Below are positions 9,672-44,566 of a DNA stretch of 64,000 nucleotides, piece by piece. The position numbers and the translations under genes are program-made. The notes beneath the pieces were generated by a model, which worked only from the letters and a program-made list of their open reading frames with translations, did not search any database and had not been told where the DNA came from. Every line of letters starts with the position of its first letter. Within the stretch, counting starts at the first letter, position 1. The stretch is from Candidatus Nomurabacteria bacterium (GTDB lineage Bacteria > Patescibacteriota > Minisyncoccia > Phycocordibacterales > UBA9973): NCBI GenBank assembly GCA_021413905.1, contig JAIOPO010000004.1, forward strand, positions 1,597 to 65,596. The letters are read 5' to 3'.

Positions 9672-9672
9672 T

Positions 9673-10833: not shown

Positions 10834-10891
10834 AAATATGATATAGTATATCATATAAATACTCTTATTTAAAAAGTATTTATATATAAAA

Positions 10892-12130
10892 ATGTCTTTA
10901 AAAATCAACCTAAAATCCATACTAAGAGATAATTCAATAAATTACACCTTAAAGAATACCTCTCTGGCAATAGTTGGTAAAACTATAATTTTTATTTTTG
11001 GTTTTCTTTTAATGAAAGCTTTTTCTCATTTTACCAGCAAAGAAACAATTGGATTATATAATTATGTTATTGCTGTACTTACAATAATAAGTATAACCAC
11101 ATTACCAGGGACAACATCGGCTCTAGTGCGCGCAATATCTAATGGTAAAGAAGGTAGTTTTTTGCATATGACCAATGCGCGTTTACGTGGTGGAATATTT
11201 GCCTTCATTTTATCTTTTTGTATTGGTATTTTTTATATAATAAAGGGAAATAATACAATTGGTTATGTCTTTTTTGTCGGCGCTTTATGCACCCCTTTCA
11301 TAGACACCCTAAGCGAAATGGCATTTGCTTATTGGCAAGGTAAAAAAAATTTCAAAAAAAGTATCTATCTTTCTATAATTTATCAAATATTATTCACAAT
11401 ACCTTCAATTCTTGTTTTAATTTTTATAAAAAAAACAATCCTATTAATTAGCTTAATATTTTTATTTCAAGCATTAAGTGGTTTTTTGATTTATAAAACA
11501 ATATCTACGGAGAACAAAGAACGCGACATTGAATCAGAAAATTTTAGCCTGCATCTTACAATAGTAAACGGATTGCATACAATAGGTATGACAATAGACA
11601 GAATAATAATCTGGCATCTTTTTGGTAGCATATCATTGGCAATATATACATTTGCAATAATACCCATAACAAAATTAGAACAACTTATTCCTATTGAATT
11701 TTTATCTTTACCTCATTTAAGCAATCAAATAAAAATAACAAATAATAAAAAAGATATCAATGAAAAAACATTACTGCTTTTTATAATACTAATCCCGTTT
11801 ATTTTATTTGGCTGGTTTATTGCACCGCTTTTTTATAAAATAATTTTTCCAAATTTTCCTGAATCAATACATCTATTTAGGATCCTTCTTTTGTTACCAT
11901 TATGTGCTTTTTTTAGTTTACCAAAAACAGCATTAATAGCGTGGAAACAACAAGAAAAATTATATTATTTAGAATTTTTTTCAATACTCATAAAAATACC
12001 GACACTTATATTTTTTGGTTTAAAATTCGGCATGACTGGTATAGCAGAAGGTTTGGTTATATCTCGAATAATTGAAGGTATAATGATTGTATATTTATTC
12101 AATAAAGTAAAAATAAAAAATGAAAACTAG
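10892..12130 (+). CDS. Oligosaccharide/polysaccharide flippase (Wzx, MOP superfamily)
   Basis: 412 aa and polytopic (roughly 12 hydrophobic segments). It sits inside a glycan gene cluster. Confidence 0.7.
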   Translation: MSLKINLKSILRDNSINYTLKNTSLAIVGKTIIFIFGFLLMKAFSHFTSKETIGLYNYVIAVLTIISITTLPGTTSALVRAISNGKEGSFLHMTNARLRGGIFAFILSFCIGIFYIIKGNNTIGYVFFVGALCTPFIDTLSEMAFAYWQGKKNFKKSIYLSIIYQILFTIPSILVLIFIKKTILLISLIFLFQALSGFLIYKTISTENKERDIESENFSLHLTIVNGLHTIGMTIDRIIIWHLFGSISLAIYTFAIIPITKLEQLIPIEFLSLPHLSNQIKITNNKKDINEKTLLLFIILIPFILFGWFIAPLFYKIIFPNFPESIHLFRILLLLPLCAFFSLPKTALIAWKQQEKLYYLEFFSILIKIPTLIFFGLKFGMTGIAEGLVISRIIEGIMIVYLFNKVKIKNEN

Positions 12131-13097
12131 AAATTTTAAAAAACCTAAAACAATAATAGTAACGGGTTGTGCTGGTTTTATAGGAAGTAATTTTGTAAAA
12201 GTTTTCAAAAAAGAATTTCCAAAAACAAATATAGTTGGAATTGATGATTTGTCTACAGGAAAAATTGAAAATATAAGCAATCAAATAAAATTTTACAAAA
12301 AATCTATTTTAAATGAAAAAGAAATGGAAAAAATATTCAAAGAACATAAACCAGAATACATTTTTCATTTCGCAGCATTACCAAGAGTTTCATATTCAAT
12401 AGAAAATCCAATAAAAACAAGTGAAATCAATATCACAGGAACAATAATTCTTTTAGAAAAATCAAAAAAATACAAAATAAAAAGATTTATATTATCATCG
12501 TCATCATCTATTTACGGTGGAGCAAAAAAAATGCCAACAAGTGAAAACAATAATCAACCAAATCCAAAAAGCCCTTACGCTCTTCAAAAATATGTAGACG
12601 AACAATTTTGTAAATTATTTAGTGATTTATTTGAAATGGAAACAATCGCATTAAGATATTTTAATGTTTTTGGACCTGGTCAATATGGAAAATCTGCATA
12701 CACTACGGTTATTTCTGGATGGCTGGAATCAATATATTTTCCAAAAAACAAAAAAGGATTTATCGAAGGTGATGGTAGCCAAACTCGTGATTTTTGTTTT
12801 GTTGAAAATATAGTTTTTGCAAACATATGTGCAATGAAAGCCACTGGAGTATTTAAAGGTGAAATTTTTAATATCGGTAATAATATAAGAATTAGTTTAA
12901 AAGAAGTAAAAGAAAAAATAGAAAAATATACAAATAAAAAATTGGAGCTTGAGAAAAGACCAAGTAGATTCGGTGATGTTAAACATACACACGCTGACAT
13001 TAAAAAAGCAATGAAATATTTAAAATATAAACCATTAATTAGTTTCTCAGATGGACTAAAAAAGACAATAGAATGGTTTGAGATGAGAAGAAAATAA
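12120..13097 (+). CDS. NAD-dependent nucleotide-sugar epimerase/dehydratase (extended SDR)
   Basis: It has the Rossmann motif TGCAGFIGSNF, the catalytic YALQK (YxxxK) and SSSSIYG. Confidence 0.9.
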   Translation: MKTRNFKKPKTIIVTGCAGFIGSNFVKVFKKEFPKTNIVGIDDLSTGKIENISNQIKFYKKSILNEKEMEKIFKEHKPEYIFHFAALPRVSYSIENPIKTSEINITGTIILLEKSKKYKIKRFILSSSSSIYGGAKKMPTSENNNQPNPKSPYALQKYVDEQFCKLFSDLFEMETIALRYFNVFGPGQYGKSAYTTVISGWLESIYFPKNKKGFIEGDGSQTRDFCFVENIVFANICAMKATGVFKGEIFNIGNNIRISLKEVKEKIEKYTNKKLELEKRPSRFGDVKHTHADIKKAMKYLKYKPLISFSDGLKKTIEWFEMRRK

Positions 13098-13106
13098 AAA
13101 ATTATA

Positions 13107-13973
13107 TTATTCTGCAATAATATTTATTAATGGTATTGAATTATATTTTTCAATATAATCAGTAACTTTGTTTAAAACCTCAATCTGTTCTGGTTCTAAT
13201 ATTTTCATTCTTTTTGTAGCAATATAAAAATTGTCCTTATCCCCTTCTAAATAAAAAGTGTTAAAAAAACGTTCGTATATTTTCTTGGTAAAATCAGGAC
13301 TTGGATTAACATTTTGATTTAAACTAAATTCAAAATAATCTAACGCTGATTTATATTTTTCAGGACTAGTTGTAGCCAAAACCAAACCCATATAATAATG
13401 ACCTTCTGGAATTGAATTATTTTTATTTAAAGAATTATTCAACAAATCAATTGCTTCTTTTTTCATACCCCTATTACTCAAATTAAAAGCATAAGCGTAG
13501 ATCACGTCTTGTCTTTCTGGTGCCAAAGCAAAAGCTTGCTTGTAGTATTTTAAAGCTTTTTCATACATACTTTTATCATTATATAAATATCCATTTTGAT
13601 CATAAGCTTTTCCTAAAGAAAGATAATAATTATAATAAGCTGGTTTTTCTTTATCTAAATAATCAGAAAATTTATCAATAGCAAAATCAAATAAAGGATT
13701 TGATTGAGTCAAATCTCCGTTTTTATATTTGTTAAAAAATTCATTTACCATTGTATACCTGATCTGTCCTTGTATATAAGTATCAGGTGAAAATATAAAA
13801 GTTTTTTTAGTAAATTTCAAAGGATCATTTAATAAAATTGAAGTAAAATGTTTTGAAAACGTAACTGTTTGTATAAAAGGTATAAATGTCCAAAAAACAA
13901 AAAAAGAAGAAATAACAAAAGTGAAAAAATAACTAAATATTAATAATAAAATCTCTGTATTATTTTTTTTCAT
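13107..13973 (-). CDS. Membrane-anchored TPR-repeat protein
   Basis: It has an N-terminal TM helix and TPR-like repeats (LSLGKAYDQNGYLYNDKSMYEKALKYYKQAFALAPERQDVIYAYAFNLSNRGMKKEAIDLL). I prefer Met12 as the start. The gene overlaps the upstream Wzy_C gene. Confidence 0.6.
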   Translation of the reverse strand: MKKNNTEILLLIFSYFFTFVISSFFVFWTFIPFIQTVTFSKHFTSILLNDPLKFTKKTFIFSPDTYIQGQIRYTMVNEFFNKYKNGDLTQSNPLFDFAIDKFSDYLDKEKPAYYNYYLSLGKAYDQNGYLYNDKSMYEKALKYYKQAFALAPERQDVIYAYAFNLSNRGMKKEAIDLLNNSLNKNNSIPEGHYYMGLVLATTSPEKYKSALDYFEFSLNQNVNPSPDFTKKIYERFFNTFYLEGDKDNFYIATKRMKILEPEQIEVLNKVTDYIEKYNSIPLINIIAE

Positions 13974-15267
13974 AAAATTCTTGTACATTAAAAATAATAA
14001 ATCCAATAATTACATAAAAAAATAAATAAGAAGTAATAGTATCCATTGCAAATAAACCTTGAACAAAGAAAGCTGACAATAAAAACAAAACAAATGATAT
14101 TTCTATTCTAGATAAATTTTTTATTTTAAAAAGTTCCTTAAAAAGAAAAAACCATAAAGATAAATAAGCAAAAAGACCGAGTAGTCCATTCATTGACCAT
14201 ATATCCAACAACTTGTTATGAGTTCTATCAAATATTCCCCTATCAAAAGAAAACAATTCAGCTGGATATATTTTTTGCCATAAAAAAGAATAATTATCCC
14301 AACCCCAACCAAGTAAATTATTTTTAAAACTATTCAATTTAGGACTTAAGGACTGAACAGTTGTTTTAGCTAAAAGTAAACGAGCCTGTGTATTACCATC
14401 AGAGGTATCAAAATCTGCTAAACGAGAAAATCCAGGTATTTTTTGCCAGAACATAAAATGCCTGGTCATAAAAAATAAGGCACTAAAAGAAACGATTAGA
14501 ACAAGTATTCCAACAGATATTTTTTGTAAAGAATACTTATTTAAAAAATAAATATTTTTCCCTTTAAATACCAAATAAAAGAGAGCAAGAATTACACCTA
14601 AAAATATTCCCAACATCACCCCTCTTGATTCTGTAATCAAAATACCTAAAACAGAAAAGAGTCCGGCAAATATTCCAATAAACTTAAACCAATTATTATT
14701 CTCTTTTACACCTCTTGACCAAAACAAAAGACTAAAAAATAAAATAAAAAGCAAATAGACTGCCAAAAAAATAGGGTTATCTACCAAAGAACCAGGGCGT
14801 AAAGTTCCATTAAACTTCTCTACCATTTCAACTATAAATAAAATAAAACCTGAAAAAATACTAATTTGAAAAAAATCATACCAATCTTTTTTTTCAAAAA
14901 TTAAAATAAATAGAAAAAAGATAATATATAAAAAAGACAAACCGACAAGCCCTTCCCCGCGCTCCATTGTGCCAGTAAAAGCCACAGAAGGACTATAAGC
15001 AAAAATCGTACTTAAAACTAAAATAACATAAGAAAACAAAACACACCAAACAACTTTATTATTTTTAAATATTTGTATTTTTTCTATTATTTTTTTTCTA
15101 AATTTTAAATCAAGAGATATTAAAACAGTAAATAAAAATAGAGCTAAAAAAACCAAAGTTCTAAAAAAGAATACTTTTGGTGTAGTATATGGAATCAATA
15201 TGCTTTTCCAAAACACAACTGGAGTCAAAGCAGTAGCAAATAAAGACAATTTAAGTAAATTCTTCAT
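13960..15267 (-). CDS. O-antigen ligase/polymerase family (Wzy_C) membrane protein; possible O-oligosaccharyltransferase
   Basis: 435 aa and polytopic, with a central loop SRGVMLGIFLGVILALFYL typical of the Wzy_C region. It sits in the glycan cluster. Confidence 0.7.
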   Translation of the reverse strand: MKNLLKLSLFATALTPVVFWKSILIPYTTPKVFFFRTLVFLALFLFTVLISLDLKFRKKIIEKIQIFKNNKVVWCVLFSYVILVLSTIFAYSPSVAFTGTMERGEGLVGLSFLYIIFFLFILIFEKKDWYDFFQISIFSGFILFIVEMVEKFNGTLRPGSLVDNPIFLAVYLLFILFFSLLFWSRGVKENNNWFKFIGIFAGLFSVLGILITESRGVMLGIFLGVILALFYLVFKGKNIYFLNKYSLQKISVGILVLIVSFSALFFMTRHFMFWQKIPGFSRLADFDTSDGNTQARLLLAKTTVQSLSPKLNSFKNNLLGWGWDNYSFLWQKIYPAELFSFDRGIFDRTHNKLLDIWSMNGLLGLFAYLSLWFFLFKELFKIKNLSRIEISFVLFLLSAFFVQGLFAMDTITSYLFFYVIIGFIIFNVQEFYEKK

Positions 15268-24509: not shown

Positions 24510-24620
24510 TTCTTTTACATAGTGCTCCCCTGTTTTGAGTTTATTTAATAAAATAATTTCAAAACAGGGGAAGCCGAAAACCTGTTCCAGAGTAGGCACG
24601 ATCAAAAAAAATGAACAAAA

Positions 24621-25259
24621 ATGAAAAATCAAAAAAGTGATCAAAATTTACTTGAGCAAGAAATCTCACAAGAACTTGCCAATGCAGAAAAAATTGCAAA
24701 ACAAGTAATAGCTAAAAAAAACAGAGCTAATTCTTTAAAAGAAGAATTGGACAAAGCAAAAAAAATAAAAGTATCTAGCGTCGTTCATAAATATCAAAAC
24801 CATGCGACTACTGTTACATGGAAAGATATAGAGGAATTCAATATTAAAACCGATAAACTTCTCCTTGATATAATAGAAGAAGTTTTTCAAAAAAACAAAA
24901 CAGTTCACTCTCCAAAACAGACTTATTTTCATTCGAAAATAGAAGAGTACTCAACAGACTTTGAGGTAATCAAAAACCTTAAAATAAATACTTTTCTGAG
25001 TATTGAGGAAATAATAATACTCTGTTATGATCTTATTTTAACAGAAAGATCCGGTAGTGGGCCATTGTATAACTCGGATTTTAAAAAATCAAAAATCCTT
25101 AATCTTGGCTATATAAATCACCCAGATTTAGGACTTGCATCAATCAGACTGGAAAGAAAAAGACTAAACCATTCTGAAGGCGAAGCAAGAGAGTATCACT
25201 TGCATTTTTACAGTGAAACAAGGCGATATTACGCGGGAAATGAATTTCTCGTTAAATAA
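24621..25259 (+). CDS. Hypothetical protein
   Basis: 212-aa ORF bounded by strong terminators on both sides. It has an N-terminal coiled coil and no motif I recognise. Confidence 0.45.
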   Translation: MKNQKSDQNLLEQEISQELANAEKIAKQVIAKKNRANSLKEELDKAKKIKVSSVVHKYQNHATTVTWKDIEEFNIKTDKLLLDIIEEVFQKNKTVHSPKQTYFHSKIEEYSTDFEVIKNLKINTFLSIEEIIILCYDLILTERSGSGPLYNSDFKKSKILNLGYINHPDLGLASIRLERKRLNHSEGEAREYHLHFYSETRRYYAGNEFLVK

Positions 25260-32935: not shown

Positions 32936-34264
32936 CTAATTCAATTTATTTTTTATATAAGAAATTAATTCAGAAATTTTTATTCTTTCTTGGTTTCCGG
33001 TATCTCGATCGCGGATAGTCACAGTATCCAAAAGCTCTGGATTTTCACCAAGGGTGTCGAAGTCGATGACGATGCACCACGGCGTGCCGATTTCGTCTTG
33101 TCGGCGATAACGCTTGCCGATGTTGCCATTGTCATCCCAAGCCACACGGCCGAATTCTTTTTTTAACATAGAAAATACTTCCCTACTTTTTGATACTAAT
33201 TCTGGTTTATTTTTCAACAGTGGAGACACAGCACAAAGCACAGGGGCAATTTGTGGACGAAGTTTTAAATATATACGAACTTCTCCACCCATTTCATCTT
33301 CAGTATATGCAGATAATAATATAGCTAATAATGCCCTCTCTACACCAAATGAAGGCTCTATCACATGTGGAGTAATCTTTTCGCTGTTCTCCTCGTCTAC
33401 ATATTCAAGCTTGTGTATCTTCAAATCAAAATCTCCTCGATATGCAAGACCGAAAAGCTCTTTTCGGCCAAAAGGATAATCAAACTCAAAATCTACTGTG
33501 CGTTTTGAGTAGTGTGCCAAATCTTCTGATACTACTTCAAGCTCGTGTACTTTATTCATATCAATACCCACGCTACTCATCCATAAATGCATTTCATTTT
33601 TCAATTCATTAAAAGCATTTTCCCAATTATTTTCTCGTACAAAATATTCTATTTCCATTTGCTCAAATTCACGAGAACGAAAAATAAAATCTCTGGGTGT
33701 AATTTCATTTCTAAAAGCTTTACCAATTTGAGCAATACCAAATGGAATCTTTGGATGATGTGTGTCCACAATGTTTTTAAAATTCACAAATATTCCTTGT
33801 GCAGTCTCTGGGCGAAGATATGAAATAGCAGAGGAATCTTCTGAGGCTCCCACTTTTGTTTGAAACATCATATTGAATTGGCGAGCTTCCCCTAGTTTGC
33901 CTCCACAATCAGCACAATTATTTTTATCTTCAATTTGATCTATTCGAAAACGATGCTGACATTTTTCACATTCTACCATTGGATCTGCAAAATGCTCCGC
34001 ATGTCCGGTAGCTTGCCACACTTCTTGACGCATCAAGATTGCAGCACGAATACCATACATATCTTCACGATTAGAAACAAATTTTTCCCACCAAGAATTT
34101 TTTATATTATTTAAAATTTCATTTCCAAAATGCCCATAATCCCAAGTGCCCGCAAATCCCCCGTAAATTTCAGAACCCGGAAAAATAAAACCGCGTCTCT
34201 TACAAAGACTCACTATTTTTTCCATTAACTCACTTTCTTCTTTTTTATTTTCTTTATTAGACAT
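32936..34264 (-). CDS. glyQS: Glycyl-tRNA synthetase (class II, homodimeric GlyQS type)
   Basis: Supporting segments are RRGFIFPGSEIYGGFAGTWDYG, the class II motifs (FRNEITPR, GVERALLAIL) and the C-terminal anticodon-binding domain. Confidence 0.95.
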   Translation of the reverse strand: MSNKENKKEESELMEKIVSLCKRRGFIFPGSEIYGGFAGTWDYGHFGNEILNNIKNSWWEKFVSNREDMYGIRAAILMRQEVWQATGHAEHFADPMVECEKCQHRFRIDQIEDKNNCADCGGKLGEARQFNMMFQTKVGASEDSSAISYLRPETAQGIFVNFKNIVDTHHPKIPFGIAQIGKAFRNEITPRDFIFRSREFEQMEIEYFVRENNWENAFNELKNEMHLWMSSVGIDMNKVHELEVVSEDLAHYSKRTVDFEFDYPFGRKELFGLAYRGDFDLKIHKLEYVDEENSEKITPHVIEPSFGVERALLAILLSAYTEDEMGGEVRIYLKLRPQIAPVLCAVSPLLKNKPELVSKSREVFSMLKKEFGRVAWDDNGNIGKRYRRQDEIGTPWCIVIDFDTLGENPELLDTVTIRDRDTGNQERIKISELISYIKNKLN

Positions 34265-34276
34265 ATTTATATTAAA

Positions 34277-36217
34277 TTATTGTATAACAGTATTGGACCC
34301 TGCCGAAGCATTCGAATCATTTGATAAACTTATATTAAGCGTGCCTTTATTGACCTGTATATTCACATTAGCAAAATCATCGTGTCCCGTCAAAACGAGA
34401 TTATTTACCAATGTCGGAGATGTAGCCACTTGAGAAGAAGAAGGAGTAAATGCTAATTGAAAAGATATTTCTCTATCGGCTTCTGTAATACCAGTTCCGC
34501 GTGGAATACCGCCGATATTCCAAACTAAATCATGAGTTGAAGGATTGTAATTCAAATCTTCATTTGCCGGAGAAATACTTCCGACAAATCTGACCCATGG
34601 TGGCAATGTCGTCATGAGTTGAGCTTTGGAAATATTGTTGGCTGTATTTGAAAGAGTCCAGACTACTGTATAGGTAGTCTCTTGTCCGACTTTCGGAGGA
34701 ATGGGTCCATTATTTTTAAATGAACCGGAATAATACAAAATTTTATTTGCAATACCTAAATCAGAAGTGATACGAATTATTTTTGATTCAGAATTATTTA
34801 ATTGTTGCAATACATTGCCTTCTACAGCTTGTTTGCCATTTATAGAAACATCGATATTTACAGTGGGTGAATTTGCAATACTCCCTGCAGAAAATAAAGA
34901 TATTGGAGAAAATGAAAAAGACAAAGCACCAGACGCTCCGGGTTCTACTTCAGACAAAGTACTATCAGCATTTTTATCCCAAATAATAGTATTTTGATTT
35001 GAATCATAAAATCCACCTTGTGTATTTATGGTTTTCCTATTCACAGCATTGCCGGAAATCTTTGCGACAATTTGCAAATCATTTACTTTTGTAGGTAAAT
35101 TATTTACCCAATTTATTTGTCCTTGTATTGGTGTTTTAGAATCCACTGCGTATTCTCTTTGGTATACTCCATTTATAAAAAGCTGAGCATCGATAAATGG
35201 TTTTTTGATATTTATAGTATGACCTAAAGAATTAAATACAATACCTATCAAAGTCTTGTCATTGTCAGCTTGTGAACCACTCCAAACATGAAAAGTTTTA
35301 TCTTCACCATCGGAAACATCGGACATTTTGCCTAAAATTGTAATATTGCTTTCTGCTCCTGGAGCCAAATCACCCAAAGACCAAACGTTATTACCAAAAG
35401 AAGGCATCGGTATTGCTTTATCAAATTGAAAACCAATAGGATAATCCACTCTTAACAACATTTTATTTACTGTTTTTGTTGAATTGAGAGTCGCTTTTAT
35501 ATTCAAAGTAATATCTTGATTCGGACTTGCTTCTGTCGGCGCATCTATGGATAAATTAATCGGGGCTGAACTTATAGACACAGGATAATCTTTTTCTTTT
35601 ACGAAAATAGCATTGGAGCCTTCGACCCTGTATTCAATTGAAATCTTTACTGGTTGAATACTGTCTTGTTCTCCAAACAAAACTATTTTTGTATTTTCAG
35701 TATGAACAGATCCGGCTGATACCGTTCCGATTGATTGACGCAAATGCGACATATTTCCGGAAGCATCACTGGAGCCTTTTGGATAATCAATAACGAGATC
35801 CACTAATTGCAAATCGGCATTATTTCTATTTGTTATTTCTATTTGCAAAGGCAATTCTTCCCCACCGGCAGTAAAAGTATTTCCCAAAACAGCAATATCT
35901 ATATTGTCATTCGACACTGTATTTCCGCCAAAGAAAAAAGAATACGAAGCAAATAACATAGCCAATATAAAAAAACCTATCGAGAACATAAAGAATTTCT
36001 TGAACATTGAAGTTTTCATAAAAAATTTATTCATAGTATTTTCTTGTTTTTCCGTAGCCCAAACATCAGGCACGTCTATTTCTTTTGATTCTGAAAAACT
36101 CGTATGATATGGGTCGTGCACTTTATAACCCTTGCTAAACAATCTGACTTTCATCTCTTCAAGTCTATTTAATTTACCTTTATCATTTTCTAACATCTGA
36201 TAATTATACCATTTCAA
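34277..36217 (-). CDS. Large membrane-anchored protein with repeated beta-sandwich ectodomains (hypothetical)
   Basis: 646 aa. A short cytoplasmic N-terminus is followed by one TM helix (FFMFSIGFFILAMLFASYSFFF) and a long extracytoplasmic region with CARDB/DUF11-like character. Confidence 0.55.
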   Translation of the reverse strand: MKWYNYQMLENDKGKLNRLEEMKVRLFSKGYKVHDPYHTSFSESKEIDVPDVWATEKQENTMNKFFMKTSMFKKFFMFSIGFFILAMLFASYSFFFGGNTVSNDNIDIAVLGNTFTAGGEELPLQIEITNRNNADLQLVDLVIDYPKGSSDASGNMSHLRQSIGTVSAGSVHTENTKIVLFGEQDSIQPVKISIEYRVEGSNAIFVKEKDYPVSISSAPINLSIDAPTEASPNQDITLNIKATLNSTKTVNKMLLRVDYPIGFQFDKAIPMPSFGNNVWSLGDLAPGAESNITILGKMSDVSDGEDKTFHVWSGSQADNDKTLIGIVFNSLGHTINIKKPFIDAQLFINGVYQREYAVDSKTPIQGQINWVNNLPTKVNDLQIVAKISGNAVNRKTINTQGGFYDSNQNTIIWDKNADSTLSEVEPGASGALSFSFSPISLFSAGSIANSPTVNIDVSINGKQAVEGNVLQQLNNSESKIIRITSDLGIANKILYYSGSFKNNGPIPPKVGQETTYTVVWTLSNTANNISKAQLMTTLPPWVRFVGSISPANEDLNYNPSTHDLVWNIGGIPRGTGITEADREISFQLAFTPSSSQVATSPTLVNNLVLTGHDDFANVNIQVNKGTLNISLSNDSNASAGSNTVIQ

Positions 36218-36238
36218 ACAAAATTTTAAAATGTCTTT

Positions 36239-36820
36239 TTACAAATGTGTTTCTTTTAAAGCACGATTTATTTCATTTAATATTTTCAAACGATTTTTAC
36301 CCATTTCAAAAATCAAATCTTCTTCAAATGGTGATTTTGTGAATTTTCCAAAATCATCCCCCGCTCCGACATAACCTAAATTATTTAGAATACGCAATAC
36401 CATGACAGATTCTATATTTTTTATTTCTTCTTTATTTTCAGCTTTTTCCAAAACCGAAAAACCTGAAATCAAATCGGTAAACAAAATATCATTTTTTTCT
36501 TCTCCCGCCAACAGGCGTTTCAGTAAACGCGCAATATTAAAAATTATTGCGAAAGTATCCGGATTTCTAGAAAGATTCTCTAGAGCATTTGTTTTCGATG
36601 CACTAGTCAAACGCCAAAAATCTTTACCCCGCACGAGGTCGAGTTTGATATAAGAAAAATCCTGCAAAACATAACGAAGTTTCGAAGACATTTTTCGCAC
36701 ACCTTGCGCAGATGCAAAAATCATCCCTAAATCACGCGTAAAAATGTAATAACATTTCCCCGCCTCGCCATAATTCTTGCTTCCCAATATTATTCCCTCC
36801 GTGTGATAAATGTGATGCAT
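36239..36820 (-). CDS. recO: DNA repair protein RecO (short form)
   Basis: The N-terminal OB-fold pattern TEGIILGSKNYGEAGKCYYIFTRDLGMIFASAQGVRK is typical of RecO. Confidence 0.75.
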   Translation of the reverse strand: MHHIYHTEGIILGSKNYGEAGKCYYIFTRDLGMIFASAQGVRKMSSKLRYVLQDFSYIKLDLVRGKDFWRLTSASKTNALENLSRNPDTFAIIFNIARLLKRLLAGEEKNDILFTDLISGFSVLEKAENKEEIKNIESVMVLRILNNLGYVGAGDDFGKFTKSPFEEDLIFEMGKNRLKILNEINRALKETHL

Positions 36821-36864
36821 AAAATTAAACTAAACCTTTCCTAAAGGGAAAGATTTTCATACCT

Positions 36865-39800
36865 TTATTCTATCACAACCTTAAATACCAATTCGTTGAT
36901 TTTTATTTCATTGCCGTCATTTTTTGTAAAATCAATTTGTTTAACGCCGACAATCTTCAAAAATTCATCTTTGAATTTATTTATTATTTCTTTGCCTTTT
37001 TCATCAGTATCAATTTTCAACACTATCAAATCACTAGGCATCAAACCTTTTGTTTTCCGCATATCTTGCACAGCTCGCACTAGCTCGCGATAATTGCCTT
37101 CTATTTTTAATTCTGGTGTGATTTCTGTATCTAATTTTATAACATCTTCTACATTTTCAGATTTAATAAATTCAACATTTTTTATATTCAATTCTTCTTT
37201 TAGAATCTCTATATAATTTATATTAAATTCATGATAAAAAATTTGAATATTACTCAAAGGCTGTCTTACGGGAATTCCTGATTTTTGTCTTTCTTTTAAA
37301 CCAGATGAAACAATTTCTCTGACTTGTTTCATATTTTCTAAAATTTCATCATTAAAATTTAAAATATTTACTTCCGGCCATTCTGCCAAATGTACAGATT
37401 CTACATCATTTTTATTTTTTAATTTTTGCCAAATATCTTCGGACGCAAAAGGCGCAAATGGGGCCATAATTTTCACTAAATTTTTCAACACAAAATACAG
37501 AGTTTGTTTTGCTTCGATATCTCCATTTTTAATTCTCTCTCTTGAACGACGCAAATACCAAGTAGAAAGATCATCGATAAAATCACGAACAGCACGCACT
37601 GGTTCCAATGTTCTATAATTGTCTAAATTATCTGTTACAGTTTTATTCAATTCATTTAAACGCGCCAAAATCCATTGATCTAAAATATTTTCAGATTTTA
37701 ATTCTGTGAATACTTCTAATTGTGGATCTCTATAGAGTTCATAAAAAGCGACGACGTTATAAAGCAAACCAAAAAATTGACGATGAATTTCCATGACAGT
37801 TCTCTCATCAAAATTCTTTGATTCACCCGGTTGATTTACGGAATACATCCAAAGACGAATAGTGTCCGCGCCATATTTTTCAAACATAAGCCAAGGGTCC
37901 ACGACATTTCCTTTTGACTTTGACATTTTTTGTCCATTTGCGTCTAAGATATGCCCCAAACAAACGACATTTTTATAAGCATTACCAGGTTCATCAGAAA
38001 GTAAATTTATAACTGCATGCAAAGTATAAAACCATCCGCGAGTCTGATCTATCGCTTCAGAAATATAATCCGCTTTTATCGGATTAAAATCAATCTCTTT
38101 ACCCAGAATATGATTTTGAGCATAAGGCATAGCCCCAGAATCAAACCACACATCCATCACTTCTCCCGTGCGAATCATTTTTTGACCATTATCTTCCAAA
38201 ACTATCTCATCAATATATGGCTTATGAAAATCCAATTCGTAATTTGCATTATGAGGTAATGGCACAAAATCTAATTCCTTGATTTCAGCATTTTGAAAAA
38301 AATGAAAATCTTTTTTATCTAAAATCATTTTTAATGTTTCTTTTACATTTTTTCCTTCAATACCTGCACACAACAACCAAGCAGGACCACCATGAGTCAC
38401 AAATAAAATATTTTTGTCTTTGTATTTTTCTTCAACATCATACAAAAATGCTGTCATACGATTTTTCACATCTTGATATGATTCATCATCCTCTACATGC
38501 AAATTAAAATTTGCTTCCGTTTTTATGTGATATTTATGATATTCTTCCCAATTCTTTCCATCAAAAGAATACGCTCCTATTTCTCGCAGTCTTTCATCTT
38601 TGATAATATTTTCTTTATTCAATCCCAATTTTTGAGCGACGATTTCCGCAGTTTCAATAGTACGAGTAAAATCAGAAGTAAATATCAAATCAATTTTTTT
38701 ATCTTTCAGAAATTCTGCGGAAATTTCCACTTGCTCTTTACCGTCTTTATCTAAATGCCATTTACCTGAAGGTTGTGTGCAAATTATATTTTTTTTATTT
38801 GCTTCTGTTTCTCCATGTCTCATTACAAAATATTTATTGCCTGATTTTTTAGTATATTTTTTCAAATCAGCCAAAGAACCGACAACTTTATAAGAGCCAT
38901 CTTCTTTTTGCCAAACAGGTATCGGTGTACCCCAATATCTATCTCTGGATATAGCCCAATCTTTTATACCATCAAGCCATTCACCAAAACGTCCTTTTTT
39001 AATATATTCCGGCTCCCAATTTATTTTTTCATTTCCTGCGAGCAATTGTTCGCGAAGCGCACTCATGCGGAAATACCAAGAAGAACGTGCGTAATAAATG
39101 AGCGGTGTATCACAACGCCAACAATGCGGATAGCTATGCATATAATTTTCTTTTTTAAACAAAAGACTTCGTTCTGTTAAATGATTTATTATATCCACAG
39201 CCAAAGTAGGTTTACCGTTCTCATCTGTTTCTTTTACATATCTACCTGCTAAGAAATCCGTACCGATGACGAATTTTCCTTCTTCATTTACTGTATGATA
39301 TTTAGGCAAACCGACTTTTGTACCAAGCTCAAAATCATCTGCTCCATACATAACAGCGGTATGCACTATACCCGTACCGTCAGTAGTCGTAACAAAATCC
39401 GCTCCGTAAATTTTAAAAGCATTTTTTATTTTTTCATCATCTTTAGCCAAATCTTTTAAATATGGGAACAATGGTTCGTATTCCATACCAATCATTTCAC
39501 TGCCTTTATGTTCAGCAATAATTTCATACGGCTGATTTAATATTTCCAATCTTTCTTTTGCCAACACTAAAATCTCATCACCGACTTTTGCCTCAACGTA
39601 AATAAAATCATTACCAACTGCAAGTCCGACATTTCCCGGTAAAGTCCAAGGCGTTGTCGTCCATGCCAAAAAATATGCGTGATCGAAATTTTTAATTTTA
39701 AATTTTATATATACGGACAAATCTTTCACATCCTTATATGCTCCCGGTTGTGAGAGTTCATGACTTGAGAGGGCCGTACCACAACGTGTACACCAAGGCA

Positions 39801-40344
39801 AAACCTTAAAATCTTTATATAAAAATCCTCTATCATTTATTTTCTTTACAACACCCCACAATGCTTCTATATAACTGTTTTCATATGTCACATATGGATT
39901 TTCTTGGTCAATCCAATAACCCATTCTTTCTGTAAATTTATTCCAAAATTCCAAATATTCCCAAACATTCTCTTTACACTTTTGATTAAAAAGTTTTACA
40001 CCATAATTTTCTATTTCTTTTTTTGATTTTAAACCAAGAGCTTTTTCCACAGCCAATTCAACAGGCAAACCATGTGTATCCCAACCCCCTTTTCTACCAA
40101 CATGAAAACCTTGCATTGTTTTGTAACGAGGAACAACATCTTTGAAAGAACGAGCTTCTAAATGATGAATACCTGGTTTACCATTTGCTGTCGGTGGTCC
40201 TTCATAAAAAATATAATCTCCTTTTGGATTATCTTTTCGATTTATCGTCTTTTCAAAAATTTTATTTTCTTTCCAGAATTCTAAAACTTTTTCCTCACGC
40301 AAAGCTGTCTCACTTTTTGTAATATTTTCTTTATTTTCAGACAT
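36865..40344 (-). CDS. ileS: Isoleucyl-tRNA synthetase (type 2) carrying an inserted histidine-phosphatase (PGAM-like) domain
   Basis: IleRS features are the HIGH region (PPTANGKPGIHHLEA), the editing-domain motif WTTTPWTLP, DVWFDSG and KMSKS. Between PIPVW and DFHKPYID there is a segment of about 190 aa with RHGETEAN, FTSDFTRTIETA, REIGAYSFDG and VTHGG. Confidence 0.95.
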   Translation of the reverse strand: MSENKENITKSETALREEKVLEFWKENKIFEKTINRKDNPKGDYIFYEGPPTANGKPGIHHLEARSFKDVVPRYKTMQGFHVGRKGGWDTHGLPVELAVEKALGLKSKKEIENYGVKLFNQKCKENVWEYLEFWNKFTERMGYWIDQENPYVTYENSYIEALWGVVKKINDRGFLYKDFKVLPWCTRCGTALSSHELSQPGAYKDVKDLSVYIKFKIKNFDHAYFLAWTTTPWTLPGNVGLAVGNDFIYVEAKVGDEILVLAKERLEILNQPYEIIAEHKGSEMIGMEYEPLFPYLKDLAKDDEKIKNAFKIYGADFVTTTDGTGIVHTAVMYGADDFELGTKVGLPKYHTVNEEGKFVIGTDFLAGRYVKETDENGKPTLAVDIINHLTERSLLFKKENYMHSYPHCWRCDTPLIYYARSSWYFRMSALREQLLAGNEKINWEPEYIKKGRFGEWLDGIKDWAISRDRYWGTPIPVWQKEDGSYKVVGSLADLKKYTKKSGNKYFVMRHGETEANKKNIICTQPSGKWHLDKDGKEQVEISAEFLKDKKIDLIFTSDFTRTIETAEIVAQKLGLNKENIIKDERLREIGAYSFDGKNWEEYHKYHIKTEANFNLHVEDDESYQDVKNRMTAFLYDVEEKYKDKNILFVTHGGPAWLLCAGIEGKNVKETLKMILDKKDFHFFQNAEIKELDFVPLPHNANYELDFHKPYIDEIVLEDNGQKMIRTGEVMDVWFDSGAMPYAQNHILGKEIDFNPIKADYISEAIDQTRGWFYTLHAVINLLSDEPGNAYKNVVCLGHILDANGQKMSKSKGNVVDPWLMFEKYGADTIRLWMYSVNQPGESKNFDERTVMEIHRQFFGLLYNVVAFYELYRDPQLEVFTELKSENILDQWILARLNELNKTVTDNLDNYRTLEPVRAVRDFIDDLSTWYLRRSRERIKNGDIEAKQTLYFVLKNLVKIMAPFAPFASEDIWQKLKNKNDVESVHLAEWPEVNILNFNDEILENMKQVREIVSSGLKERQKSGIPVRQPLSNIQIFYHEFNINYIEILKEELNIKNVEFIKSENVEDVIKLDTEITPELKIEGNYRELVRAVQDMRKTKGLMPSDLIVLKIDTDEKGKEIINKFKDEFLKIVGVKQIDFTKNDGNEIKINELVFKVVIE
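38266..38835 (-). other. Histidine phosphatase superfamily (branch 1) domain embedded in ileS
   Basis: My hand mapping places the RHG codons at 38820-38812. The domain ends at ...KELDF (38266). Confidence 0.75.
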
Positions 40345-40388
40345 AATAGGATTTTAGCATAAATTGAACTTTTTTCCAGCCCAAAAAA

Positions 40389-41738
40389 TTAAAAAGAATT
40401 CAAATAATTTTTGTGCATCTTTTGAGTTTCTTCTTTTGAGAGTTTACCGAAAACTTTCACCGCTTCGGAAGATTGATCTTTGAAAAAAATATCTTTTTCT
40501 AAAATATCTGGATGCACTTTAAAAGCTCTATCATTTATGCCGAGCAAATACAAACCCGACAATCTACGCACACGAGAAAGCGCCACATATCCTTGCCCGT
40601 ATTCAAAAACTTGTGACAAATCCATAATAGCCGAATCGAGCGACATTCCCTGGCTTTTATGCACTGTCATCGCCCATGCCAAACGCAAAGGCACTTGCGA
40701 AATCATCGCGCGCACTTTGCCATTTTCTTCGACAACCCAATCCAATGGTGAAACTGTAAAACTTTTTCCGTTTTTCTTTTTAATTATCGGGTAACCGGTA
40801 AACTCTTCAAAATCCTCCACTACACCGAGTGTGCCATTCACATAACCTTCTTTCGGATTGTTTTTCGTGCACATTACCACTGCACCGATTTTAAGCGTCA
40901 AAATTTCCGGTGACAAGCATCCTTTCTTGAGTGACATTACCAAAGGTTCACGCCCTTCGGAAACCATTTCAAAAATTCTTTTCTCTTCACTTATTTTTTC
41001 AAGCTCAATATTATTTATCTGATCCACATTATAATTGTGCGAAAAAAGTTTCGTGACATCGTCTGGCACATCGTCTAAAATGGTTTGCCTAGCTGTGACG
41101 TATTCCATATGCTCGTCATTTATTTTATCTGCGCGTATTGCCGAAAGTAAATTTAAAAAATCCGGATCATCCTGACGATGTTGTTCTGTCAGATAGCAAA
41201 TGACCAAGCCCGCCCTACCCCAAGACACTGCGTCATATGCAAAAATACTTTTCTTTTTTTCTATCAAAAGACTATTTTGTTTTTCTTCTGTATTGCTACG
41301 CACTATCGGTGGCAATTGAAAAAAATCTCCAACTAAAATTATTTGTATTCCGCCAAAAGCTTCACTGTTTTGTTTTACTTCTCTGCACACTGCGTCTATC
41401 ATATCGAGCATATTTGCCGTTAGCATTGATATCTCATCAATTATCAAAACACGCGTTTTCCTAATGCGTCTTGAAATATATTCAGTGCTCGCTATTTTGT
41501 CCAATTCGTATTTATCAAGTTTCGTGCGTATACCTATGCCACTCCAAGAGTGTATCGTCATCCCGCCTATATGCGTCGCGGCTATACCTGTTGATGCGGT
41601 TATCGCGGGCTCCACGCCATTGTTACGCAAATAATTCACAAAAGAATTGATAGTATAACTTTTACCTGCCCCCGGCTCGCCAGTCAAAAAAACATTCGCT
41701 CCCGTTTTTAAAATATTTAGCGCTTGCTCTTGGGTCAT
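40389..41738 (-). CDS. PIF1/RecD-family 5'-3' DNA helicase
   Basis: It has Walker A (GEPGAGKSYT), DEISML, the QLPPI motif, and a C-terminal TVHKSQG ... ALSRV. Confidence 0.85.
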   Translation of the reverse strand: MTQEQALNILKTGANVFLTGEPGAGKSYTINSFVNYLRNNGVEPAITASTGIAATHIGGMTIHSWSGIGIRTKLDKYELDKIASTEYISRRIRKTRVLIIDEISMLTANMLDMIDAVCREVKQNSEAFGGIQIILVGDFFQLPPIVRSNTEEKQNSLLIEKKKSIFAYDAVSWGRAGLVICYLTEQHRQDDPDFLNLLSAIRADKINDEHMEYVTARQTILDDVPDDVTKLFSHNYNVDQINNIELEKISEEKRIFEMVSEGREPLVMSLKKGCLSPEILTLKIGAVVMCTKNNPKEGYVNGTLGVVEDFEEFTGYPIIKKKNGKSFTVSPLDWVVEENGKVRAMISQVPLRLAWAMTVHKSQGMSLDSAIMDLSQVFEYGQGYVALSRVRRLSGLYLLGINDRAFKVHPDILEKDIFFKDQSSEAVKVFGKLSKEETQKMHKNYLNSF

Positions 41739-41779
41739 TAAACTATTCTACTACATACGCACGAGTAAAGAAACGAAAA

Positions 41780-42409
41780 TTATTCTACTTTCCAAGAATT
41801 CTCATCAAAATATAACTTTGATGCATCCATATCCTTCTTATAAAAGAGAACACTGTAACTTTTTCCATTATAATCGTAAAAAACAAACTTAATCTCTTCA
41901 AAATTAAGAACTAATTTAAAATCTGTTGATTTTTCTTTTTCAACAACAAAACTAACATAATAAGAATTAGCTTTATCTTGTTTTAAATAAGTTATAAACA
42001 AAAGATCTTTATCTGATGGAATTCTCAAGATATTTTTTTTACCATTGTTAAATTTATATTCAACATCGTCAGATTTATAAGCTTTAGCAGAATAATACTT
42101 TTCATCTCCTGGGTATTTTACAAATACATCAAAATCTTTTATATTTATTGCTTTCTTTAGAACTGTTAAAGAAACCTGTAAAGTATACCCAAAACCATTT
42201 ATAGTTTTATTTTCTAAGTTAATATCTGTATGTGTATAAGAGATACTTGGACTCCCAGTAAGACTTATAATTCTACCATTAATTTCTGGCTTAATTGGCC
42301 AATAAGGCCTACTAGCAATGATTAAAGCTAAAATAGAAATTACTATAGTTGCCCAATCTTTAAAAGAAAAAGATTCACAATTATTTACCATAAAATTTAT
42401 TATACACAT
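41780..42409 (-). CDS. Hypothetical membrane-anchored protein
   Basis: 209 aa with one N-terminal TM helix (WATIVISILALIIA). I recognise no motif. Confidence 0.4.
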   Translation of the reverse strand: MCIINFMVNNCESFSFKDWATIVISILALIIASRPYWPIKPEINGRIISLTGSPSISYTHTDINLENKTINGFGYTLQVSLTVLKKAINIKDFDVFVKYPGDEKYYSAKAYKSDDVEYKFNNGKKNILRIPSDKDLLFITYLKQDKANSYYVSFVVEKEKSTDFKLVLNFEEIKFVFYDYNGKSYSVLFYKKDMDASKLYFDENSWKVE

Positions 42410-42420
42410 AATATTAATTA

Positions 42421-44136
42421 CTACATTCTCTCCGGCAATTTAATGCCCAAAAGCCAAAGACCATTTTGCATTGTGGTTAGGAATGATTTTGTGAGAGAAA
42501 TATAATACGGAGAATATTTGTCTTCCGAATTTAAGATTTGTGTTTGTGCGTAAAAAGAATTGAAGCTGGAAGCCAAAGCTGTCAGATATGTGGCAATGTG
42601 ATGCGGTTCTAGTTCTTCATATGAGTGAACGACGACTTCCGGGAAACGATAAATTATTTTTTCTAATTCAGAAATTTGTTCAGGAATTTCTGAAGCTTTT
42701 TTTATTTCACCAGCTTTCACGAGGATTGATTTCGCGCGCATTGCGGAATATTGTAAATATGGACCGGAATCCCCTTCAAAAGAAATTGATTTTTCAAAAT
42801 CATAAATAATATCAGAACCCAAAGATGAGCGAAGAATAGAATATTTCAAAGCAGACACGCCAACAATTTCTGAAACTTTCTTTTTTTCTTCTTCGGTGAA
42901 ATCTCTGTCTTGGATTTTCTCCAATACTACATCCATAGAATCCCGCAACAAAGATTCCCCTGTTATGACATTGCCTTTTCGTGAAGACATCTTGCCGGAA
43001 GCAAGGCGCATCATACCGTGCGTGATATGTTTCATTCTTTTTTCAAGTTCCGGATGCATCAATGCAATCGCTTGCTGGACGACTTTCATATATTCTCCTT
43101 GCTCGATGGCTGTATCAACTATAGAAATATCCGGATTTTCTTTTTCAAACTTTATCATTGTCAGTCCTATTTCTTTCGTCTCATAAAGCGGTATGCCTTG
43201 AGAAGTCAAAAATACTCGCGTATGAAGTTTCGGATTATATTTTTCTGCGTGAAAAACTATAGCGCCTTCTGATTCTTCAAAGACATTTGGCACATTTGCG
43301 CGGACAATTTTCTCACCTATAGGCGCCATCTCACTTTCAAAAAAATAATAATCAAATTTTGTGCCAAGAATTTTATAAATTTCTTCAAATGCTTCAAGAG
43401 TAACTTTCCTACCCCAATCATAAATTTTATTTATTTCCGCATCGCTCCTGTCGTAAACTTTTTTATTTATTATGTCGATTTCTTTTTTCGCTTCTTGGTC
43501 ATTGTCATACAAATCACTGCCTTTTGAATAGCACTCACCAATATATTGAGCAAGAACAGAAGCAGGCGCAGATTCATCTGCCGGAGCACCTGCTTTATAC
43601 ATCCCATAAATCGCTTTCGCAATATGCGGACCGACGTCGCCTTGATAATTTGCACGGATAGTTTTCGCTCCGGAGAATTCCACAATTCTCGAAACTGATT
43701 CCCCAATAGCATTACTCATCAAATGCCCAATATGAAAAGGCTTGAAAGGATTTGGCTGAGTGTATTCCACCATTACTTTTTTGCCAGACAATACTTCATT
43801 TTTCCCCCAATCTTCTCCTTTATGTAAAATATCTTTTACATAATCACTGAAAAATTCTCTTGTTAAATAAAAATTAATAAACCCTGCGCCGGCTATTTGA
43901 ATAGTGTCTACTCCTACTATTCCTTTTTCATTTGTATCTTCATAAAGTTCAGCAATTAGTTTCTCTGCTAAATCTATTGGTTTCATTTTTAATTTTTTCG
44001 CGCAAACCATAGCGACATTTGTAGAATAATCCCCATTCTTTAAATCTTCCGGATGCTCCACGACAAAATTCATCTCTTCGTTTATATCAAGTTTTTTTAA
44101 CGCCTCTTTTATTAAATTTTCTATTTGTTGTTTCAT
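42421..44136 (-). CDS. argS: Arginyl-tRNA synthetase
   Basis: It has a HIGH-type motif (PNPFKPFHIGHLMS), the MSSRKG (KMSKS-like) motif and the C-terminal DALR anticodon-binding domain. I prefer the start at MKQQIENL (44136), directly after the dut stop. Confidence 0.94.
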   Translation of the reverse strand: MKQQIENLIKEALKKLDINEEMNFVVEHPEDLKNGDYSTNVAMVCAKKLKMKPIDLAEKLIAELYEDTNEKGIVGVDTIQIAGAGFINFYLTREFFSDYVKDILHKGEDWGKNEVLSGKKVMVEYTQPNPFKPFHIGHLMSNAIGESVSRIVEFSGAKTIRANYQGDVGPHIAKAIYGMYKAGAPADESAPASVLAQYIGECYSKGSDLYDNDQEAKKEIDIINKKVYDRSDAEINKIYDWGRKVTLEAFEEIYKILGTKFDYYFFESEMAPIGEKIVRANVPNVFEESEGAIVFHAEKYNPKLHTRVFLTSQGIPLYETKEIGLTMIKFEKENPDISIVDTAIEQGEYMKVVQQAIALMHPELEKRMKHITHGMMRLASGKMSSRKGNVITGESLLRDSMDVVLEKIQDRDFTEEEKKKVSEIVGVSALKYSILRSSLGSDIIYDFEKSISFEGDSGPYLQYSAMRAKSILVKAGEIKKASEIPEQISELEKIIYRFPEVVVHSYEELEPHHIATYLTALASSFNSFYAQTQILNSEDKYSPYYISLTKSFLTTMQNGLWLLGIKLPERM

Positions 44137-44137
44137 T

Positions 44138-44566
44138 TTATTTATGTCCTGTGCTACCTTCCCTGCTATCACCACGCACCGTATCAGTCAAATCTTCCAC
44201 TTCTTCTACAATATCACAATGTTCGAATTTTTGTATCAACATCTGAGCAATTTTATTTCCTTTTTCCAAAGTCACTTCCTTATCAGAAGTATTTAGCATA
44301 CACATAATTATTTCTCCGCGATAACCAGCATCAATGACTCCACCCATAACTTTTAAACCCATATTAAAAGAAATACTGGATTTATCCCAAATCAAACCCA
44401 CATATCCTTCGGGTATTTCCACAGCCACACCAGTATGTATTTTCATTTGTTTTCCGGCAGGAATCGTAACATCATTCACAGTATAAAAATCCATACCCGC
44501 ATCCCCCGGATGTCCGTGTGTCAGCAATTTTGCATCATTATTTAATTTTTTTACTTTTAGTTGCAT
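44138..44566 (-). CDS. dut: dUTP diphosphatase
   Basis: Motifs GDAGMDF, GVIDAGYRGEI and RGDSREGSTG. Confidence 0.93.
   Translation of the reverse strand: MQLKVKKLNNDAKLLTHGHPGDAGMDFYTVNDVTIPAGKQMKIHTGVAVEIPEGYVGLIWDKSSISFNMGLKVMGGVIDAGYRGEIIMCMLNTSDKEVTLEKGNKIAQMLIQKFEHCDIVEEVEDLTDTVRGDSREGSTGHK

Follow-up and report, generated by a model that had tools for sequence, protein, structure and literature searches.

A histidine phosphatase nested in a peripheral loop of type-2 isoleucyl-tRNA synthetases from candidate phyla radiation bacteria

The ileS gene of a Candidatus Nomurabacteria contig (JAIOPO010000004.1, assembly GCA_021413905.1) appears to encode two enzymes in one frame—a complete isoleucyl-tRNA synthetase (IleRS) and a PhoE/PspA-like histidine phosphatase (HP) set into a peripheral loop of the synthetase. 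The gene lies in the stretch of DNA analysed here, 64,000 nucleotides in length (the window). That the nested architecture is genuine we regard as virtually certain. Our preferred reading, to which we give a probability of about 0.55, is that the inserted domain is an autonomous phosphomonoesterase tied to IleRS, with no part in aminoacylation chemistry. The gene is laid out as follows (aa, residues of the product; CP1, connective peptide 1).

36865–40344, minus strand: ileS open reading frame (ORF), an uninterrupted frame of 1159 aa plus stop; IleRS with a nested histidine phosphatase
38854–40344, minus strand: IleRS residues 1–497; first Rossmann half and CP1 editing domain, up to the WAISRDRYWGTPIPVW element and the helix GSLADLKKY
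40162–40173, minus strand: GIHH (aa 58–61), the class I HIGH signature in its non-canonical GXHH variant
39637–39663, minus strand: WTTTPWTLP editing motif (aa 228–236), read in the sequence
38236–38853, minus strand: inserted segment (aa 498–703); linker TKKSG, HP domain and linker FVPLPHNANYE
38260–38829, minus strand: histidine phosphatase domain (aa 506–695), branch 1, PhoE/PspA-like by Pfam and model fold
38797–38820, minus strand: RHGETEAN (aa 509–516); nucleophile His510, with Arg509 and Asn516
38647–38682, minus strand: FTSDFTRTIETA (aa 555–566); second phosphate-binding Arg561, with Ser557
38557–38589, minus strand: LREIGAYSFDG (aa 586–596); probable proton donor Glu588
38386–38406, minus strand: LFVTHGG (aa 647–653); second catalytic His651
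36868–38235, minus strand: IleRS residues 704–1159; LDFHKPYIDE, DVWFDSG, KMSKS, anticodon-binding domain and type-2 C-terminal domain (DUF5915)
38134–38154, minus strand: DVWFDSG (aa 731–737), read in the sequence
37915–37929, minus strand: KMSKS (aa 806–810), read in the sequence

Judged from sequence and model, the host is a complete GXHH-class type-2 IleRS whose synthetic site, editing and tRNA-binding domains are intact, and aminoacylation itself is predicted. The product (NCBI MCE9585375.1, recorded as a 'class I tRNA ligase family protein' of a Candidatus Nomurabacteria assembly) scores 861.5 bits with TIGR00392, the NCBIfam ileS equivalog model, over a cutoff of 621.4, the match falling in two stretches around the insert. 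Pfam likewise places tRNA-synt_1 in two stretches on either side of His_Phos_1, together with Anticodon_1 and DUF5915. A full-length AlphaFold (AF2) model from a 74-sequence alignment has a predicted local distance difference test (pLDDT) score of 86 and a predicted template modelling (pTM) score of 0.78, and its IleRS body superimposes on solved IleRS2 structures with target-normalised TM-scores of 0.82 (8c8v) and 0.91 (1ile). An earlier reading of this DNA, made from its letters alone (the sequence-only reading), had called the 1159-aa product colinear with type-2 IleRS, which these comparisons bear out, and the WTTTPWTLP, DVWFDSG, KMSKS and four HP motifs that it quoted are all read where it had put them. 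The CP1 editing region also contains GTGIVHTA. A HIGH region, also listed there, is present, in the non-canonical form GIHH. Brkic et al. showed that the GXHH signature functions only in IleRS2, and it confers mupirocin hyper-resistance (PMC10485003); the best PDB sequence match of the window enzyme, 8c8w, is the GVHH mutant from that work. GIHH is the commonest HIGH form among genome-derived HP-nested IleRSs (14 of 29), and HYGH-type enzymes carry the insert too.

The insert of ~205 aa stands in place of a ~6-residue loop (ASGTEV in L090, for instance) of uninterrupted IleRSs from the candidate phyla radiation (CPR), between a helix '...ELKxAS' and 'DLHKD...', and alignment with these enzymes delimits it to aa 498–703. 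Chain residues 7–477 and 472–891 of 8c8w align with residues 10–497 and 689–1100 of the query; both flanks being covered, this is a pure insertion and no part of the host is missing. It is therefore, as first proposed, an internal in-frame insertion in one uninterrupted ORF and not a terminal fusion. The interval proposed for it, 38266–38835 (aa 504–693), approximates the HP domain itself, with the full insertion at 38236–38853. A location in the 'catalytic core' was apt in sequence terms only; the actual site, flanked by the SRxRxWG and DVWFDSG elements, is a peripheral connective-peptide loop belonging to the second zinc knuckle. It probably corresponds to the CP3 position. In yeast IleRS the connective peptides are the CP core, CP1, CP2 and CP3 (PMC11685878). 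The sequence-only reading described the connective peptide of other IleRSs as often zinc-binding, which is right for the relatives—of 71 family members, 28 have a CxxC...CxC knuckle on either side of the insert—but the knuckle is gone in 33 of the 71, and the window enzyme is among those without its cysteines.

By its motifs and modelled fold the insert is a branch-1 histidine phosphatase with a complete catalytic set, and phosphatase activity is predicted. Its sole Pfam match is His_Phos_1 (PF00300; aa 506–676, E = 5.4e-34, 118 bits over a cutoff of 21.7). Conservation is strict among 161 near-complete HP domains nested in IleRSs, from proteins that match the junction-spanning query (the window insert with short flanking sequence) at only ~30–50% identity. 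Both Arg, the nucleophile and second catalytic His and the residue equivalent to Ser557 are each present in 161 of 161; the Asn516 position is kept in 145, and the proton donor is Glu in 153 domains and Asp in six others. A phospho-histidine mechanism would follow the family pattern, with His510 as nucleophile, Arg509, Arg561 and His651 binding phosphate and Glu588 donating the proton.

Modelled alone, the HP domain reaches pLDDT 93.8, and Foldseek places it nearest to the phosphoserine phosphatase PspA, the mycobacterial hydrolase 6s2q, PhoE, HFP and GpgP (TM ~0.75–0.77, ~22% identity). With PspA, PhoE and GpgP at TM ~0.77 and E ~1e-14, the insert is more than a connective peptide lacking the HP fold. 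Some 196 of 198 columns align with these ~200-residue metabolite phosphatases, including the same cap, and solved mutases rank lower. Assignment to a true cofactor-dependent phosphoglycerate mutase (dPGM) was rejected on score (archaeal dPGM NF038349, 77.7 against 225; TIGR01258, 29.8 against 81.7; GpmB NF002901, 48.4 against 261), as were the alpha-ribazole phosphatase CobC (TIGR03162, 83.3 against 162.9), PspA (NF045917, 58 against 350) and SixA (TIGR00249, 36.6 against 74.5). The description 'PGAM-like' is thus valid for the fold only, since the mutase models stay below cutoff, the domain is of ~190 aa and mutases align worse than small phosphatases. The linkers around the insert are conserved across relatives and modelled with high confidence. 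Charge varies among HP copies and is not consistently basic; the window copy is acidic (net −6). No second HP copy was found elsewhere in the 64-kb window.

The architecture recurs widely. Searched exhaustively with the junction-spanning query, a set of 1.84 billion cluster representatives gave 104 matches at E ≤ 1e-30, each standing for a 50%-identity cluster; among the 150 matches listed, most span the junction, and the full-length ones mostly carry the insert at residue ~450–500. PF00300 is found in all of the best 120 IleRS clusters, which are 59–76% identical to the query. We also recovered 28 loci from species-representative genomes with continuous HP-containing ileS ORFs of 1130–1490 aa; our locus scans were seeded with particular motifs and took up to 80 loci per scan, and their proportions are not prevalences. 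These loci belong to Nomurabacteria/Paceibacteria-type, Yanofskybacteria, Spechtbacterales and Peregrinibacteria/Peribacteria lineages, all Patescibacteria/CPR bar a few short contigs. The latter (L001, L014 and L015; 8–26 kb) come from metagenome-assembled genomes labelled Spirochaetia (one) or Gammaproteobacteria (two), and since the contigs are short and their genes CPR-like, mis-binning or mislabelling is likelier than presence outside CPR. HP-less ileS loci also exist in CPR (L031, L061, L067 and L074), where the phosphatase is neither nested nor adjacent.

Misassembly or a frameshift, which the sequence-only reading had named as a danger, is rejected by the same continuous architecture in hundreds of independent assemblies at 25–76% identity; an apparent split at L025 is a run of N in the scaffold. 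An intein was also rejected: the insert starts with TKKSG and has no Cys/Ser nucleophile, a 'PHN' is followed by Ala, and there is no Hint or intein Pfam match. Recent horizontal insertion was rejected too, as the GC content of the insert (0.295, against 0.331 in the rest of ileS) and its GC at third codon positions are only slightly lower, and the identities of insert and body co-vary (r = 0.54). The insert evolves faster, with a mean identity of 33% against 46% for the body. We infer that nesting is old and was mostly inherited vertically across Paceibacteria-type and Peregrinibacteria-type CPR.

The same phosphatase occurs as a separate gene beside ileS. The closest free-standing HPs (P0007–P0009) are CPR genes ~40% identical to the insert. 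An uninterrupted IleRS (TIGR00392, 857 bits in a single stretch) lies 3 bp downstream of P0009, an IleRS N-terminus follows downstream of P0008, and an ArgRS C-terminus lies upstream of P0007 and P0009. A metagenome scan seeded with these three genes, and hence skewed toward the free-standing form, gave at least 80 loci; in 80 of them HP is free-standing in 60 and nested in IleRS in 20. Downstream sequence of 300 nt or more is available for 52 of the free-standing HP genes (the informative loci); in 42 of these the ileS start is no more than 100 nt downstream, and in three more no more than 1.3 kb. On the upstream side, 29 of 53 have an ArgRS gene no further than 150 nt away. Both HP forms together were found in none of the 80 metagenome loci, and the flanks of the nested loci from the genome scan held no second HP. 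Upstream of HP-containing ileS, argS is present in 14 or more genome loci, with a gap of 3 bp in L002, and also in the window, where a PIF1-like helicase gene and a 209-aa ORF lie between the two.

42421–44175, minus strand: argS; ArgRS of 584 aa without an HP insert, upstream of ileS on the same strand
41783–42409, minus strand: 209-aa ORF with no Pfam match

We infer that the nested domain is a relocated form of the free-standing HP gene found between argS and ileS in sister CPR lineages. GIHH and HYGH IleRS subtypes each occur in both nested and adjacent arrangements, and the nearest neighbour of ~11–13% of HP domains belongs to the other arrangement, which makes more than one nesting or un-nesting event likely. 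The pattern of neighbour and nested forms is Rosetta-stone-type evidence of a functional tie, with fusion by nesting and not end to end. More distant free-standing HPs (P0014 and P0017) lie near glycoside hydrolase and Wzy/AI-2E genes, and these unrelated contexts limit the tie to the closest HP subfamily. A separate case is P0003 (289 aa; L081 5001–5870 and L082 3101–3970), a free-standing HP that still has vestiges of the IleRS zinc knuckle on either side (CAAC...SLEELKKK before the domain and FICSQCGGEM after it), with the proton-donor Glu replaced by Val. It sits in a sugar cluster of NeuB, UDP-GlcNAc 2-epimerase and CMP-transferase genes; it looks like an excised knuckle-plus-HP module reused elsewhere, for which a role as a sugar-phosphate phosphatase is plausible.

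Nesting extends to valyl-tRNA synthetase (ValRS); neither this nor the separate gene beside ileS figured in the sequence-only reading. Among 120 relatives of the ValRS-like P0091, 71 contain HP domains, one to four each, mostly from Gracilibacteria/Peregrinibacteria (for example, MCK5460626.1). Of the 87 copies, 71 occupy the site homologous to the IleRS insert, between 'RIPVW' and 'DTWFSS', and nine lie between PQWF and SRQxxWG. P0091 has four copies and P0287 three in tandem, and P0291 is a further HP-bearing ValRS relative; a Nomurabacteria ValRS (P0389, 931 aa) has no HP insert. Conservation is looser than in IleRS, with the full catalytic set in 51 of 80 copies and Asn for the second catalytic His in nine of 80, which may be inactive. 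In IleRS itself, Peregrinibacteria-type enzymes have a tandem double HP at the main site, some carry an extra copy after WFDSG (in P0127, between DCWFESG and the DQTRGWF element), and P0140 and P0151 have one directly before Anticodon_1. An apparent start of a third HP copy is seen near the truncated C-terminus of P0127. A recent proliferation of a mobile HP domain was considered and rejected: copies inside one protein are only 23–36% identical, as divergent as between proteins, so the multi-copy events are old and reflect no recent burst.

Other domains have entered these genes. P0271 (1335 aa) is an HP-insert IleRS ending in an HD-type domain (PF01966/PF13023, aa ~1140–1207), a second phosphohydrolase; P0097 (1066 aa) is an IleRS with an IS200-like Y1 transposase domain in its editing region (aa 340–461), HP at aa 680–854 and a C-terminal GNAT domain; and some ValRS relatives have DUF559 (PF04480) and HU (PF00216) Pfam matches. 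In CPR bacteria, the genes of class Ia synthetases seem to accept foreign domains in frame with unusual ease.

What might the phosphatase do? From the conservation of its catalytic residues, the domain is very probably an active phosphatase, and a genuine functional tie between HP and IleRS is probable. Nesting would lock the dosage and location of the phosphatase to those of IleRS. Its likely target would be a small phosphorylated molecule, for example a nucleotide-like by-product or the phosphate of a sugar or another metabolite. We lean toward a small-molecule over a macromolecular substrate, tentatively and at a little under even odds, on the PspA/PhoE-like cap, the non-basic charge, the untethered operon form and the occurrence of P0003 in a sugar cluster. 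The operon form further implies that covalent tethering is not needed for function.

Several observations weigh against this reading. No curated NCBIfam HP subfamily model reached its own cutoff with the window domain, and the loci with neither HP form indicate that HP is not indispensable. Nesting recurs at the homologous ValRS site (those 71 of 87 copies), at further IleRS sites and in tandem arrays, a hint that sitting physically on the synthetase brings an advantage, and covalent nesting brings no kinetic gain for a freely diffusing substrate. The conserved, confidently modelled linkers suggest fixed docking and not a passive passenger. The phosphatase could instead be a dedicated partner of IleRS and ValRS that serves quality control or upkeep of aminoacylation in CPR bacteria, acting on a substrate held by the synthetase, which we consider rather unlikely; candidate targets would be a (pyro)phosphorylated tRNA 3′ end, pyrophosphate or another nucleotide by-product in the active site, or a phospho-residue of the enzyme. 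If that were so, repeated same-site nesting and the tandem arrays would reflect selection for physical coupling, and class I synthetases would have gained a novel type of accessory catalytic domain, in principle much as they once acquired the CP1 editing domain.

The main rival to an autonomous phosphomonoesterase is a tRNA-end phosphatase working in cis, which would strip a 2′- or 3′-phosphate, a pyrophosphate or an opened cyclic phosphate from A76 of the synthetase-bound tRNA and restore the diol on which class I enzymes act. These enzymes acylate the 2′-OH, and some toxins are known to cleave tRNA 3′ ends or to phosphorylate them, both of which suit this idea. So do the use of one connective-peptide site by IleRS and ValRS, the linkers, gene partners that are specifically tRNA synthetases (argS-HP-ileS) and the point that covalent nesting pays only for a synthetase-held substrate. 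However, the domain has a full small-metabolite cap, where macromolecule phosphatases such as SixA or the Sts-like enzymes have an open site, and no member of the HP family is known to us to act on RNA ends. A single tRNA end would not call for two to four tandem copies, end damage would not be specific to Ile or Val, and the free-standing operon form works untethered; the variable charge, −6 in the window copy, is weak evidence against a general RNA-binding surface. We judge a tRNA-end role unlikely.

A passenger with no functional tie would arise if the connective-peptide loop, as the part of class Ia synthetases most tolerant of insertions, had captured an upstream housekeeping phosphatase that was then kept for an unrelated metabolic role. 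The foreign domains tolerated in P0097, P0271 and the ValRS relatives are in keeping with this, as are the faster evolution of the insert, its absence from some CPR ileS loci and its generic PhoE-like fold. Yet those other domains are sporadic whereas HP is clade-wide, ileS adjacency is consistent (42/52), nested and adjacent forms are mutually exclusive, ValRS nests HP at the homologous site and retains multiple copies, and the catalytic residues persist in 161 of 161 domains across deep divergence. We think it improbable that HP is a mere passenger.

Very improbable, in our estimate, is a non-catalytic structural or regulatory module, either a scaffold replacing the zinc knuckle or a sensor of phosphate, pyrophosphate or nucleotide that tunes IleRS. 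The loss of the knuckle cysteines in 33 of 71 members (the window enzyme included), the nine Asn-substituted ValRS copies and the conserved linkers could be read in this way, but IleRS copies keep their catalytic residues, including the nucleophile His and proton donor, which a pure scaffold would not need (a sensor might), and the free-standing form cannot serve as a scaffold. An artefact or self-splicing element—misassembly, a gene-joining frameshift or an intein-like sequence—has practically no chance of being correct, as nothing supports it, L025 having only at first resembled a split before proving to be scaffold Ns, and hundreds of independent assemblies, the lack of intein residues and His_Phos_1 as the lone Pfam match all oppose it.

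Within the window, 32939–44175 of the minus strand holds three tRNA synthetase genes in 11 kb on the same strand: argS, ileS and a class II gene. Among them lie the PIF1-like helicase gene, recO and two ORFs without a Pfam match (the 209-aa ORF above and one of 646 aa). Elsewhere, an RNA motif that is the window's only Rfam match at gathering threshold lies just upstream of a 212-aa ORF at 24621–25259, and a region of ~6 kb at 8001–14000 has a GC content of ~0.25 compared with ~0.33 window-wide.

32939–34264, minus strand: class II synthetase (tRNA-synt_2b and HGTP_anticodon, by Pfam)
34280–36217, minus strand: 646-aa ORF with no Pfam match
24564–24598, plus strand: DUF805b cis-regulatory RNA motif (RF02914, 41.5 bits)

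Aminoacyl-tRNA synthetases are among the best-studied enzymes, and their added domains have repeatedly revealed new biology in editing, tRNA handling and signalling. Here we describe a clade-wide, deeply conserved link between a synthetase and a catalytically intact phosphatase in three independent genomic guises: an operon neighbour, a domain within IleRS and a domain, often in several copies, within ValRS. CPR bacteria are ultra-small, have minimal genomes and seldom keep dispensable domains. We know of no phosphate-ester step in aminoacylation, and the partnership therefore points to an unrecognised need in the CPR translation apparatus. It also offers a clean natural example of a neighbouring gene turned nested domain, and automatic annotation conceals such enzymes by labelling them 'class I tRNA ligase family protein'. 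The sequence-only reading was aware of no phosphatase inside a class I synthetase, and full-text literature, with most subscription journals not covered, likewise yielded no description of one in or beside a tRNA synthetase; two recent phylogenomic studies of IleRS make no mention of an HP insert. The HP–IleRS partnership appears to be undescribed so far, its sequences being public under generic names.

Compared with known systems, the window enzyme is colinear throughout with type-2 GXHH IleRSs (Priestia megaterium IleRS2, 8c8u/8c8v/8c8w; Thermus, 1ile) and shares their editing, KMSKS and C-terminal domains, but has a ~205-residue second catalytic domain in the knuckle loop and has lost the knuckle cysteines. 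The phosphatase shares fold, size and catalytic residues with PspA (4ij5), PhoE/YhfR (1h2e and 1ebb), 6s2q, GpgP Rv2419c (4qih) and the riboflavin-pathway HFP (9mmh); unlike them it is nested in, or encoded beside, a tRNA synthetase, and is ~22% identical. A precedent for an IleRS with a second, unrelated catalytic domain is ileS_w_GNAT (NF040702), an IleRS with an added N-acetyltransferase. That model has a cutoff of 1999 bits, of which the window protein reaches 315, its own extra domain being a phosphatase and internal; P0097 has both an HP insert and a C-terminal GNAT on one IleRS. An HP domain (CobC-like) joined to a nucleic-acid enzyme is seen in RNase H/acid phosphatase (NF005567, PRK07238; M. 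tuberculosis Rv2228c type), a fusion whose rationale is, to our knowledge, still unclear. That case is end to end and with another partner, and the window insert gives 63 bits over aa 499–655 with its model, against a cutoff of 326. Closest in evolutionary principle are the connective-peptide modules of class Ia synthetases (CP1, CP2, CP3, zinc knuckles and the leucine-specific domain of LeuRS), which likewise entered surface loops of the Rossmann fold. Whereas those modules are synthetase-specific folds for editing or tRNA handling, the IleRS insert is a ready-made enzyme from an unrelated superfamily.

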